Source of the DNA: Escherichia coli
GTDB taxonomy: Bacteria; Pseudomonadota; Gammaproteobacteria; Enterobacterales; Enterobacteriaceae
Direction: 5' to 3' (one strand)
Assembly: GCF_013315695.1 (NCBI RefSeq)
Contig: NZ_CP054353.1
Length of the DNA stretch: 64,000 bases
Part shown: one piece after another, positions 7,590 to 13,265 of the stretch
Layout of the letters: each line of letters starts with the position of its first letter
Numbering within the stretch: position 1 is the first letter of the stretch
Notes under the pieces: model-generated
Database searches by the model: none
Told to the model about the DNA's origin: nothing
What the model saw: only the letters and a program-made list of their open reading frames with translations
Position numbers and translations under genes: made by a program

Positions 7590-8564
7590 ATGCAGGCGTT
7601 ACTTTTAGAACAGCAGGACGGCAAAACTCTCGCATCAGTACAGACTCTGGACGAAAGTCGCCTGCCGGAAGGCGATGTCACGGTTGATGTTCACTGGTCG
7701 AGCCTGAACTACAAAGATGCGCTGGCAATTACCGGTAAGGGAAAAATCATCCGTAATTTTCCGATGATTCCTGGGATCGATTTTGCCGGAACTGTACGCA
7801 CCAGCGAAGATCCGCGTTTTCATGCCGGTCAGGAGGTGTTACTCACTGGCTGGGGCGTTGGTGAAAACCACTGGGGTGGGCTGGCGGAGCAGGCGCGAGT
7901 GAAAGGTGACTGGCTGGTTGCCATGCCGCAAGGGCTGGACGCGCGTAAAGCAATGATTATCGGTACTGCCGGTTTTACCGCCATGCTGTGTGTGATGGCG
8001 CTGGAAGATGCCGGTGTTCGCCCGCAGGACGGCGAGATTGTCGTAACGGGTGCCAGTGGTGGCGTCGGCAGTACCGCCGTGGCGCTGCTGCATAAGTTGG
8101 GTTATCAGGTCGTTGCCGTTTCCGGTCGCGAAAGTACCCATGAATATCTGAAAAGTTTAGGAGCCAGCCGTATTCTCCCTCGCGATGAGTTTGCCGAATC
8201 CCGTCCTCTGGAAAAACAAGTCTGGGCTGGGGCAATTGACACCGTTGGCGACAAAGTGCTGGCAAAAGTGCTGGCGCAAATGAATTACGGCGGCTGCGTG
8301 GCGGCCTGTGGTCTGGCGGGTGGTTTTACTCTGCCAACCACGGTCATGCCATTTATTCTGCGTAATGTCCGTTTGCAAGGGGTGGATTCAGTAATGACGC
8401 CACCAGCACGCCGCGCACAAGCCTGGCAGCGACTGGTCGCCGATTTACCGGAATCATTCTATACCCAGGCGGCAAAAGAGATATCTCTGGCAGATGCACC
8501 GAAGTTTGCCGAGGCCATCATTAATAACCAGATCCAGGGTCGCACGCTGGTGAAGGTTAACTAA
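7590..8564 (+). CDS. acuI: Acryloyl-CoA reductase / quinone oxidoreductase-like (MDR superfamily)
   Basis: 324-aa translation MQALLLEQQDGKTLASVQTLDESRLPEGDVTVD... with Gly-rich nucleotide-binding motif (VTGASGGVGS); matches remembered YhdH/AcuI. Confidence 0.92.
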   Translation: MQALLLEQQDGKTLASVQTLDESRLPEGDVTVDVHWSSLNYKDALAITGKGKIIRNFPMIPGIDFAGTVRTSEDPRFHAGQEVLLTGWGVGENHWGGLAEQARVKGDWLVAMPQGLDARKAMIIGTAGFTAMLCVMALEDAGVRPQDGEIVVTGASGGVGSTAVALLHKLGYQVVAVSGRESTHEYLKSLGASRILPRDEFAESRPLEKQVWAGAIDTVGDKVLAKVLAQMNYGGCVAACGLAGGFTLPTTVMPFILRNVRLQGVDSVMTPPARRAQAWQRLVADLPESFYTQAAKEISLADAPKFAEAIINNQIQGRTLVKVN

Positions 8565-8600: not shown

Positions 8601-9431
8601 TTGAAATCATTATTCAATCGGTTAACGGGAAAAGCGGTTAGCCGGACAGCTTTCGTCGAACATCTTGGTCATGAAGTTGTACAACATCATCCAAACTGGA
8701 AAGTCATGATTTCGACTGACCATAAATTGATGCGCATTGATACGGGTCACCAAACGGTGGAAATCACTCTTGATGATGCCTACAAACGTTATCAAGCCGC
8801 ACCAGACCCGCTGGAAGAAGTGGCTGCAGATATGCTGAAACAGCTTGCAGAAATGCTGCCGACCGGGCGCTGTATTGTTCCGGTGATTAAAGAAAAAGCC
8901 TGGCTGGATACCGTTCGCCAACAGCTTAGCCAGTATGAATCTGATCCAGAGATCCTCAACGCCTCGCTGGATTTTGCCTGGGAAGACTTTAACGATGAGT
9001 TAATTATCTTGTTTGCTGAAGATGGTAGCGAAACCATGCGCTATCTGATGCGCTACGAAGTGACCATTGACCGCGAACAAGCCATCAATAATTTGAAGCA
9101 AATATTGCCGGAAGTTTCGGCTGAAATCGTTGATACAGGCGCAAACGCTGGAAAAGTTGCCGTTATCTCCGCAGGGGGTACTTATGAGCCCAGTCTGATG
9201 CTCATTGACGATCTTTGGGTGCAATCACCCGATCCTGAATGCGGCGACCTGTTAGTGACTGTTCCCTCCAGAGGAAAACTGTTTTTCACCTACAATGATC
9301 AGCCAGCAAATCTCAGCGCATTACGACAGTTAACAGAACAATGCTTCCGTGAGGATGACCATCCTCTGACAACACAGATATTCATCCGCCGTAACGGTCA
9401 CTTTTATCCCTGGGTAGAAACCTTGCATTAA
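8601..9431 (+). CDS. Hypothetical protein, 276 codons, function unknown
   Basis: Long uninterrupted ORF 36 bp downstream of acuI, TTG start preceded by a purine-rich stretch (agagaggg); first in-frame ATG is at 8706. Composition is protein-like, with some rare codons (AGA, ATA, CGA). A hairpin plus T-tract lies about 65 bp downstream. I do not recognise the product. Confidence 0.45.
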   Translation: MKSLFNRLTGKAVSRTAFVEHLGHEVVQHHPNWKVMISTDHKLMRIDTGHQTVEITLDDAYKRYQAAPDPLEEVAADMLKQLAEMLPTGRCIVPVIKEKAWLDTVRQQLSQYESDPEILNASLDFAWEDFNDELIILFAEDGSETMRYLMRYEVTIDREQAINNLKQILPEVSAEIVDTGANAGKVAVISAGGTYEPSLMLIDDLWVQSPDPECGDLLVTVPSRGKLFFTYNDQPANLSALRQLTEQCFREDDHPLTTQIFIRRNGHFYPWVETLH

Positions 9432-9494
9432 CGCAACCTCCGTCATGCTTGAAAAAGCTTGTCGGAGTATGTGATGAATGCTGCAAACTCACCG

Positions 9495-9527
9495 AAGCCG
9501 ATTTTGCCACCAAATCGGCTTTTTTAT
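9495..9527 (+). terminator. Candidate intrinsic terminator downstream of the 276-codon ORF
   Basis: Inverted repeat gccgattt / aaatcggc around a short loop, followed by ttttttatt. Confidence 0.5.
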
Positions 9528-9989
9528 TGTCACGCGGCAAATTCTGAATGCATCACATAGCCGCACTGCCGCCTGACAAAACAGTTTACCTTCTGCAAAA
9601 TGGGGGGAATAATCTGATTTTATTTGATTACAAATTAACCACTTAAACCTATTTAATGCTGAGCATTGTCAGTCGGTTGATTTTGCGTGCTTTAGCATTC
9701 ACATCTATCCAGACGATGCAGTGAAAATTGGGTAATCCCCAGCAACCGCTGCGTAATGTCGTCTATCTTGTCGCGATCCTGGCATCCCTACATTATTTGT
9801 GGTCTGTGAAGATTATCTCATTGCAGCCCCTCATCTTCGCAGGGCTGGCTTTACAGCTTTTCACCTTACGTTATAAGAAGTTCCGTCGATGATGGCGCTA
9901 ATTTCGTGAATTGTGCGGCTTGTTGCAAATTACACGGTGTTGAAGGTTATTTACATGTTAGCTGTTGATTATCTTCCCTGATAAGACCA

Positions 9990-10035
9990 GTATTTAGCTG
10001 CCAATTGCTACGAAATCGTTATAATGTGCGACCTC
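9990..10035 (+). promoter_or_regulatory. Candidate accBC promoter, -10 hexamer tataat at 10020..10025
   Basis: Perfect tataat about 270 bp upstream of accB; the accBC promoter is known to sit unusually far upstream of accB. The -35 assignment is ambiguous by eye. Confidence 0.4.
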
Positions 10036-10296
10036 GTCCTCCCTGACGCAGTTTTTGCGCTGCGGAAAAGGTGACATTGGCGCAACGAAGGTATATTTTG
10101 TTTTTTGCCGGAGGATAGCAGCAGATCGCTGCACAATGTCCGTCAAGTCTAACATTGACACTCTGGGGCAAAATAGACCGGCGTCCCGGCCTGCTGGAAT
10201 TTATCGCTATGCATACAGCTGTCGGGGCATACGCTTTACAGACGGCGGTGAAACGCCTGTCACAATCACACTAAACAAAGAGTACGGAACCCACTC

Positions 10297-10767
10297 ATGG
10301 ATATTCGTAAGATTAAAAAACTGATCGAGCTGGTTGAAGAATCAGGCATCTCCGAACTGGAAATTTCTGAAGGCGAAGAGTCAGTACGCATTAGCCGTGC
10401 AGCTCCTGCCGCAAGTTTCCCTGTGATGCAACAAGCTTACGCTGCACCAATGATGCAGCAGCCAGCTCAATCTAACGCAGCCGCTCCGGCGACCGTTCCT
10501 TCCATGGAAGCGCCAGCAGCAGCGGAAATCAGTGGTCACATCGTACGTTCCCCGATGGTTGGTACTTTCTACCGCACCCCAAGCCCGGACGCAAAAGCGT
10601 TCATCGAAGTGGGTCAGAAAGTCAACGTGGGCGATACCCTGTGCATCGTTGAAGCCATGAAAATGATGAACCAGATCGAAGCGGACAAATCCGGTACCGT
10701 GAAAGCAATTCTGGTCGAAAGTGGACAACCGGTAGAATTTGACGAGCCGCTGGTCGTCATCGAGTAA
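10297..10767 (+). CDS. accB: Biotin carboxyl carrier protein of acetyl-CoA carboxylase
   Basis: 156-aa translation [28 protein letters not shown]... with Ala/Pro-rich linker and the biotinylation motif [10 protein letters not shown]. Confidence 0.97.
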
Positions 10768-12218: not shown

Positions 12219-13265
12219 CTAACGGTAGCTTGCAATTTCCGCTTTCAACGCGCTAATTTCAGCATCGCCATCAACAATTCCCAGCTCAAAGCAGTATGTC
12301 TTTGTTTCCCCTGGCTCTATAAAGGGCAGACGCCCCTGCGCTCGTTCTTTATCACGACCGTCAGGAAAACTATTGCTGACCTCCAGCCCCATAACATATT
12401 CACCCGCGCCTAAATTTTTCCAGTGGATAAAGTTGGGTAGCTGCATGGTGTCGAATTTCTCGTAAATTCCCCACCCCAGTTCGGCGTTCACCAGCGCAAC
12501 TTTACTCATCCCCTGACTGTCGCTATTCAACGTGAGATAGTAAACCTGCTCGTCAAAACCGGGCTGTGGGGTACAAATCTCCAGATGACTGGTTAACCCT
12601 TCCGCCGCATGCGGGGTTCGTGGCGTTACGCTTTTAGCCGACAGCAAGATTTCTGCCTGTGGCGATAATAAAGGCCAGCCGTAATTAAAGTGATAAAGAA
12701 TTTGCAGCGGCTGGCGGGTGAAACCATGATTAGTCACCTTGTCTTCAATGCGCAGCACATTTTCGCCATAACGGCAGCGAATGGTCCTTTCCAGCGTCAG
12801 ATTTTCACCGAACAATCGTGTTTCCCGTACTTTGCCATTGATGACAAATTCAATGCCGTCGTCGGTCCGTTCTGTGCGATACCCCACCTCTTCTGCTGGA
12901 GTCGCAGCCAAACGCCCGTGTAACCCCAGCGTTTCTCCGTTATCCTCACAGGGCGTGCCAATGTAGCTAAGTCCGCAGGTAGTCAGTAACCCCGCGTAGA
13001 AGCTACGTAAAAACCCGTTGCCCTGAGACTCAAAAAAAGCGGGGGCGACAATGCCGTTGGGGGTGATAAAAGAGAGCGCAGTATCCTTGTAGCTGGCCCA
13101 TGCAATATCCAGCGCGCGATCTTTTACCACCGTAAATGCCAGTCCCGCACCAGTACGGACATCAAACGCTTCTGTCCCCTTTGCTCTGCCACTACGTAAC
13201 TCATAGTGTTTAATTCCGGCAACCTGCGAGAGATCGCCAATCCACGACCAAATTTCGTTTTTCAT
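12219..13265 (-). CDS. Island protein, 348 aa; possibly aldose-1-epimerase (mutarotase)-like, assignment tentative
   Basis: Complete ORF whose stop/start overlaps the start of the downstream kinase gene (13262..13265), i.e. operon-coupled. No signal peptide or transmembrane segment seen. Family call is impression only. Confidence 0.65.
   Translation of the reverse strand: MKNEIWSWIGDLSQVAGIKHYELRSGRAKGTEAFDVRTGAGLAFTVVKDRALDIAWASYKDTALSFITPNGIVAPAFFESQGNGFLRSFYAGLLTTCGLSYIGTPCEDNGETLGLHGRLAATPAEEVGYRTERTDDGIEFVINGKVRETRLFGENLTLERTIRCRYGENVLRIEDKVTNHGFTRQPLQILYHFNYGWPLLSPQAEILLSAKSVTPRTPHAAEGLTSHLEICTPQPGFDEQVYYLTLNSDSQGMSKVALVNAELGWGIYEKFDTMQLPNFIHWKNLGAGEYVMGLEVSNSFPDGRDKERAQGRLPFIEPGETKTYCFELGIVDGDAEISALKAEIASYR

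Follow-up and report, generated by a model that had tools for sequence, protein, structure and literature searches.

The 865-nucleotide interval upstream of accB in Escherichia coli is very probably a gene-loss scar around one conserved promoter

Introduction

The accBC operon of Escherichia coli has a described promoter and a long leader (Li & Cronan 1992/1993; James & Cronan 2004), and published papers describe activation of accBC by FadR, autoregulation by AccB and control of its expression by ppGpp and growth rate. A 2026 preprint adds that OmrA overproduction lowers accBC mRNA, with no mapped site. The accB transcription start site (TSS) comes from one 2009 genome-wide 454 dataset (PMC2760140), whose supplementary file 3 places it at −263 (7 reads), with a −35 element TAGCTGCCA and a −10 element GTTATAAT separated by a spacer of 16; the only other accB signal in that table is a single read at −40. 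Further upstream, the annotation of K-12 MG1655 has the pseudogenes yrdF (b4697) and yrdE (b4646) between yhdH (acuI) and accB, and both are stated to be pseudogenes (PMC7648144). The promoter, the long leader and two upstream pseudogenes are therefore known already, either from publications or from the annotation of K-12.

Here, we dissect the DNA upstream of accB in a 64,000-nt stretch of E. coli DNA (contig NZ_CP054353.1, hereafter the window) and compare it with the corresponding loci of other Enterobacterales. An initial annotation of the window had singled out this interval as unusually long and suggested that it could harbour additional regulatory elements or a small RNA. We find that the whole interval is accountable as relics of three lost genes (msrP, msrQ and aroQ) around the known accBC promoter, which makes it an ordinary interval with no hidden regulator or small RNA.

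Results

Gene context of the interval

The gene order in the window is csrD (minus strand), acuI/yhdH (7590–8564), a DUF1444-type ORF, the interval, accB and accC. From the last base of the DUF1444-type ORF (9431) to the first of accB (10297) there is a gap of 865 nt (9432–10296), which is long for E. coli, as the initial annotation had noted. The interval contains no intact gene and its longest ORF does not exceed 89 aa. The chromosome of E. coli isolate AF3 (NZ_OZ547117.1) matches 9432–10296 at 100%, and 9600–10296 is found at 95% identity or more in 5423 of 5426 complete E. coli genomes. The composition profile is unremarkable, with a mild AT-rich dip at 9500–10100, and a repeat search of 9400–10320 returned short pairs only, compatible with chance. 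The features discussed below are the following:

8601–9431, plus strand: DUF1444-type ORF, 276 aa (ORF list; PGAP 'DUF1444 domain-containing protein', WP_000838294.1)
9463–9567, plus strand: msrP' relic, consisting of a Shine-Dalgarno sequence, a start codon and about 33 frameshifted codons (local DNA alignment)
9494–9527, plus strand: terminator-like hairpin (9494–9522) and T run (terminator scan)
9590–9895, plus strand: msrQ' (yedZ-like) C-terminal relic, MsrQ residues about 97–193 (tblastn, PGAP pseudogene)
9966–10003, plus strand: conserved promoter-upstream block, abutting the −35 (column conservation)
9998–10025, plus strand: sigma-70 promoter of accBC, ancestrally of aroQ-accBC (promoter scan, mapped TSS, conservation)
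10034–10135, plus strand: 5' part of the accBC leader, probable ancestral aroQ 5' UTR (alignments)
10136–10274, plus strand: probable aroQ' relic, type II 3-dehydroquinate dehydratase (synteny, tblastn, multiple alignment)
10275–10296, plus strand: aroQ-accB spacer, 22 nt, with the accB ribosome-binding region (alignments)
10297–10767, plus strand: accB (biotin carboxyl carrier protein), then accC (ORF list, RefSeq and K-12 annotation)

On the other side of the operon, an aldose 1-epimerase-family gene (12219–13265 and beyond, minus strand) and a sugar kinase gene directly follow accC. K-12 has the accC-yhdT-panF junction at this place; the insert is accessory and common to ST95-type strains.

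The accBC promoter and its upstream block

A promoter scan of the interval returned five promoter-like sites against a chance expectation of 1.7 ± 1.3. The best of the five (10/12) combines a −35 CTGCCA (9998–10003), a 16-nt spacer and a −10 TATAAT (10020–10025), which lies 272–277 nt before the accB ATG. The published start at −263 corresponds to about 10034 in the window, so that the TSS is placed at about 10032–10034, and it was mapped with the same hexamers. Thus, the TATAAT that the initial annotation had pointed to about 270 bp before accB is the accBC promoter, and its description of accBC as autoregulated by AccB, controlled by growth rate and preceded by a long leader agrees with the papers, the leader being about 263 nt.

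For the comparison across species, the promoter core AATTGCTACGAnnTCnTTATAATG (10004–10027) was searched in one genome per species, which yielded 53 loci from Yersinia, Serratia, Erwinia, Brenneria, Citrobacter, Klebsiella/Raoultella, Kosakonia, Enterobacter, Atlantibacter, Buttiauxella and others. Loci were chosen by an exact match to 21 promoter bases, and lineages with a diverged promoter (e.g., Salmonella) fall outside the sample. The exact match of the core in 53 species genomes, and with it the conservation of 10004–10027, is therefore given by construction. The 38 nt at 9966–10003 lie outside the pattern that fetched the loci, and their columns are at least 95% conserved across the 53 sequences, which span Enterobacteriaceae, Yersiniaceae, Erwiniaceae and Pectobacteriaceae. 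This conservation pattern looks like promoter-upstream binding sites. The block contains a FadR-box-like sequence, CCTGATAAGACCAGTAT (9977–9993), which resembles FadR operators and is a putative FadR box. The suggestion that 9530–9990 has no assignable function and may hide regulatory elements or a small RNA is not supported: msrP and msrQ relics lie there, and conservation is limited to 9966–10003, next to the −35.

Constraint was also examined against Citrobacter with the same deletion in the leader (see below). Identity is 100% in the promoter block, 82% in the leader 5' UTR, 72–76% in the middle of the aroQ relic and 94–96% in the 3' end and spacer (10227–10296), as compared to 81% at accB third codon positions. 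Constraint in the leader is, by these identities, limited to its two ends. In total, only 9966–10030, parts of 10034–10135 and 10227–10296 appear constrained, while 10136–10226 and all DNA upstream of about 9966 seem to evolve like junk. Since there are only three constrained parts, deletion analyses of accBC can focus there.

The accBC leader as a decayed aroQ gene

By the distance between promoter core and accB ATG, the loci form two classes. This distance is 281–294 nt in E. coli, in the locus of CP089930.1 (L015), in eight Citrobacter loci and in Klebsiella grimontii, and 606–760 nt in the remaining 33 loci that extend as far as accB. In the long-gap loci, the space between promoter and accB is filled by a 150-aa ORF that matches PF01220 (DHquinase_II, E=7e−60) and is aroQ; the ORF is found in most loci, including every sampled genus outside Escherichia, Citrobacter and Klebsiella.

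Multiple alignment shows the E. coli leader to be collinear with the aroQ loci, with an ATG at the ancestral position (10136) and a net internal loss of about 314 nt from aroQ. The most recognisable part is the 3' end: 10228–10274 (47 nt) corresponds to aroQ nt 407–453 including the stop codon, tblastn with AroQ finds 14 of 15 residues identical (the last 15 codons), and DNA alignment to aroQ gives z = 25–35 for this part, as opposed to z<2 for the rest (10136–10226). The middle, 10136–10226, is unrecognisable on its own and would belong to aroQ by its position and by collinearity. The aroQ-accB spacer and the preceding ~50 nt are nearly invariant, and the 5' part of the leader contains two conserved blocks, AAAGGTGACA (10067–10076) and GGTATATTTTG with a T run (10090–10106). 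As far as alignment and synteny can tell, then, the accBC leader (about 263 nt) is the former aroQ 5' UTR followed by an internally deleted aroQ relic. The initial annotation had overlooked this decayed gene, and no description of an aroQ relic turned up in a search of the literature on aroQ and accB in E. coli. In this species, the type I enzyme AroD takes the place of AroQ.

Several observations on individual leaders accompany this picture. The relic aroQ ATG opens a 62-codon ORF (10136–10324) whose stop codon lies 28 nt inside accB. Li and Cronan reportedly noted in 1993 that the unusually long accBC leader contains an ORF, and we presume that the 62-codon ORF is this 'ORF in the leader'. 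A change of the aroQ Shine-Dalgarno from GGAG to GCAG is seen in Citrobacter with the same aroQ deletion as well as in E. coli. In K. grimontii (L044) and Citrobacter amalonaticus (L019 and L036), aroQ decay differs from that of E. coli and the promoter-accB distance is still 281–293 nt; either independent loss or a length constraint may account for near-equal lengths reached by differing decay. In Yersinia and Serratia (L008, L009, L026, L029, L040, L047 and L049), accB lies 740–760 nt after the core, and the aroQ-accB spacer is about 85–130 nt long with a TATAAT of its own near accB, a sign that accB may have an internal promoter in these two genera.

Relics of msrP and msrQ, and the upstream ORF

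The initial annotation had found no assignable function for 9530–9990. Most of this stretch is covered by two relics, msrP' (9463–9567) and msrQ' (9590–9895), and pseudogenes are annotated here both in RefSeq and in K-12. The RefSeq record, 100% identical to the window, has a pseudogene at 9590–9892 ('cytochrome b family protein', 'internal stop; incomplete'; PGAP), and the same relic is named YedZ/MsrQ in other records. When K-12 and L015 MsrQ were used as tblastn queries, both matched 9590–9880 over residues 97–193 (E=1e−31 to 7e−32), and DNA identity to msrQ is 77–78%. The first ~96 codons are missing, an in-frame TGA interrupts the frame at 9722–9724, and the relic ends at its own stop codon (9893–9895). 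Database homologues of the relic bear YedZ/MsrQ names and carry PF01794 (Ferric_reduct); an 81-aa msrQ fragment searched alone has no significant Pfam family because it is too short. By its similarity to MsrQ, its disabling lesions and its synteny with intact msrPQ, 9590–9895 is an msrQ/yedZ pseudogene.

Intact msrP (Oxidored_molyb) and msrQ (Ferric_reduct) genes are found between acuI and accB in CP089930.1 (L015). In about 50 of the 53 loci, as in the window, msrQ ends ~114 nt before the promoter core, and acuI is about 1.8 kb further upstream in nearly all 53. E. coli has a functional msrPQ pair elsewhere, adjoining hiuH, and msrPQ is also present at 8 plasmid places in this species. Divergence between the E. 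coli msrQ relic and the intact copy of L015 amounts to 22%, whereas the flanking DNA is 90–100% identical, so that the history of the relic may exceed simple in-place decay. A recent move of msrPQ from the accB locus to the hiuH locus is conceivable, although the accB-locus pair of L015 (1568–3172) and the hiuH-locus pair of E. coli (L059, 3479–5119) share only about 86% DNA identity, as compared to 96–100% for the flanks. In strain M15 (L004), at the equivalent of about 9850–9860, the msrQ relic carries three extra tandem copies of the 8-nt GCTTTTCA; this 24-nt expansion is consistent with unconstrained DNA.

The product of msrP is a periplasmic methionine-sulfoxide reductase. The msrP' relic aligns with the start of msrP in CP089930.1 with a score of 79 (shuffles, 21.6 ± 3.7; z about 15), and its conceptual peptide KLTEADFATKSAFLL resembles the MsrP sequence QFTEADVTAESAFFM. 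Within the relic, 63 nt past the DUF1444 stop codon, lies a hairpin (9494–9522) with a 10–11 bp stem and a 7-nt loop, followed by TTTTTTATT. Its inverted repeat is 100% complementary, and a terminator scan found this one hairpin with a T run (9494–9527) where 0.8 were expected by chance. A homologous hairpin and T7 run are present within the intact msrP of CP089930.1, which indicates that the motif in msrP' was inherited. In the window, the msrP'-derived hairpin may serve as a terminator for yrdF.

The intact L015 gene offers an observation of its own: at about 1590–1625 (msrP codons ~8–20), a perfect 7-bp hairpin, AGCCGAT-N11-ATCGGCT, is followed by T7. It sits in the part that encodes the MsrP signal peptide, and thus has the look of an intrinsic terminator within an ORF.

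The upstream 276-codon ORF corresponds to yrdF, a pseudogene in K-12 but intact here. Its match to Pfam DUF1444 is weak (E=0.009, below cutoff). The full DUF1444 gene occurs in 669 of 5426 E. coli genomes; K-12-type strains retain just its first ~143 nt (yrdF), and a deletion joins this stub to a somewhat longer msrQ relic (yrdE). At the promoter-core loci of other Enterobacterales, the DUF1444 gene is absent in all 53.

Other readings of the interval

Could the leader act at the RNA level? Its transcript might form a cis attenuator or a terminated small RNA like Ysr190 (Yersinia sRNA 190), with a stem that closes the first ~60 nt ahead of the U-rich tract at 10096–10106, so that part of transcription would stop before accB. 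An outer stem, GACCUU...AAGGU, recurs in many species right before the conserved U-rich tract, conserved blocks surround this tract, and Rfam RF02764 (Ysr190) weakly matches 10000–10099. Ysr190 occupies the homologous place, extending from the promoter over the first ~70 leader nt up to the U tract. However, the match has 25.3 bits (E=0.51) against a gathering score of 66 and derives mostly from promoter DNA, no family reached threshold in an Rfam scan at permissive E-value, and E. coli does not conserve the hairpin predicted in Yersinia. RNAalifold of 22 Enterobacteriaceae leaders gave −2.1 kcal/mol, no consensus and 0 compensatory pairs; the E. coli leader fold does not differ significantly from shuffles (z=−1.34), and the median z of per-species folds is −0.45. 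In E. coli Term-seq tables, which cover 200 nt upstream of ORFs, there is no 3' end at the leader U tract and the only accB 3' end is a weak one at −63. It corresponds to 10234 in the window (K-12 3405373), is not Rho-dependent, has an intrinsic score of 2.1 and falls just upstream of a conserved GGCG-GUGAAA-CGCC hairpin. We consider early termination in the leader distinctly unlikely, and the small RNA proposed in the initial annotation finds no RNA element in the Rfam scan, RNAalifold or per-species folding. The conserved leader blocks could instead mark a second promoter, GTGACA-N17-TATTTT (10071–10099), which would also drive accBC (ancestrally aroQ-accBC). This site scores 9/12 in the promoter scan, and among 47 distinct leader sequences both hexamer blocks are conserved around a variable spacer of constant length. 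The 454 table, however, has its accB starts at −263 and −40 and none near −190 (PMC2760140), and elements that act in the RNA or bind protein would explain the blocks equally well, which makes a second promoter unlikely in our judgement.

Upstream of the promoter, a functional small membrane protein could be encoded by a 54-codon ORF (9728–9892) or by other ORFs of 9530–9990, or the region could hold an independent small RNA gene. The 54-codon ORF is intact and appears as a 'hypothetical protein' in many deposited genomes (54 aa, 234 contigs), and a promoter-like site lies at 9573–9613. On the other hand, the ORF corresponds to the last two transmembrane helices of MsrQ, after the in-frame TGA of a gene left without its first 96 codons, and both PGAP and the K-12 curators treat the region as a pseudogene. 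The relic, at 65–78% identity to intact msrQ, is decaying; one strain has a 24-nt tandem expansion within it, and Rfam has no match that would support a small RNA. A functional gene product from this region is thus highly improbable, and we retain the reading of the interval as gene relics around one promoter.

Discussion

We conclude with high confidence that the 865-nt interval is a gene-loss scar around one conserved promoter. The ancestral order would have been acuI, msrP, msrQ, promoter, aroQ, accB and accC, an order that persists in Yersinia, Serratia, Erwinia, Klebsiella/Raoultella, Enterobacter, Kosakonia and others. The events in the E. coli lineage were probably these: (i) a DUF1444 gene (yrdF) entered the locus by insertion behind acuI; (ii) deletion reduced msrP to a 5' stub and msrQ to a 3' stub; and (iii) aroQ lost about 314 nt internally. 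Three parts would still be functional, namely the promoter block (9966–10030), the former aroQ 5' UTR and the ~70 nt directly preceding accB, which would carry the accB translation-initiation region. RNA polymerase would start at about 10034 and transcribe a ~263-nt leader of aroQ debris, then accB and accC. The conserved leader ends have presumably been kept for accBC expression.

Has the debris acquired a function of its own? It is improbable, though conceivable, that the aroQ remnant was co-opted as a cis element for control of accBC after initiation. Such an element may comprise the last ~70 nt, with the GGCG-GUGAAA-CGCC hairpin and the weak −63 3' end, together with the former aroQ 5' UTR blocks, and possibly also the 62-codon relic ORF. 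If so, it would serve AccB autoregulation, repression by OmrA or growth-rate control, and autoregulation by AccB, a protein without a DNA-binding motif, would map to a leader derived from a pseudogene. For annotation, the gain from the gene-loss reading is that the accBC leader can be described as decayed aroQ, a small evolutionary footnote rather than a new kind of element, and that the strain-variable yrdF/msrP'/msrQ' arrangement would reflect two different deletions.

How does the window compare with the described systems? Its promoter and leader are the accBC promoter and long leader of the E. coli literature (Li & Cronan 1992/1993; James & Cronan 2004): same element, same locus and same hexamers. 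The yrdF/yrdE pseudogenes of K-12 occupy the same place as the window relics, and yrdE contains the msrQ' relic as its 3' part. In contrast to K-12, the window keeps an intact 276-codon yrdF and a short msrP' stub, and the 5' end of its msrQ' relic is about 100 nt shorter than in K-12-type strains. Because the 5' ends of this relic differ, the deletion end points differ also, which points to the window type and the K-12 type as two different deletions of one older arrangement. Finally, the aroQ-accB-accC cluster of other Enterobacterales and Gammaproteobacteria has several parts in common with E. coli: the promoter core, the blocks in the 5' UTR, the terminal 47 nt of aroQ and the spacer. E. 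coli differs from this cluster by the aroQ segment of about 314 nt that it has lost and by a Shine-Dalgarno changed from GGAG to GCAG, and for these two reasons what is a gene in the cluster would be only a leader in E. coli.
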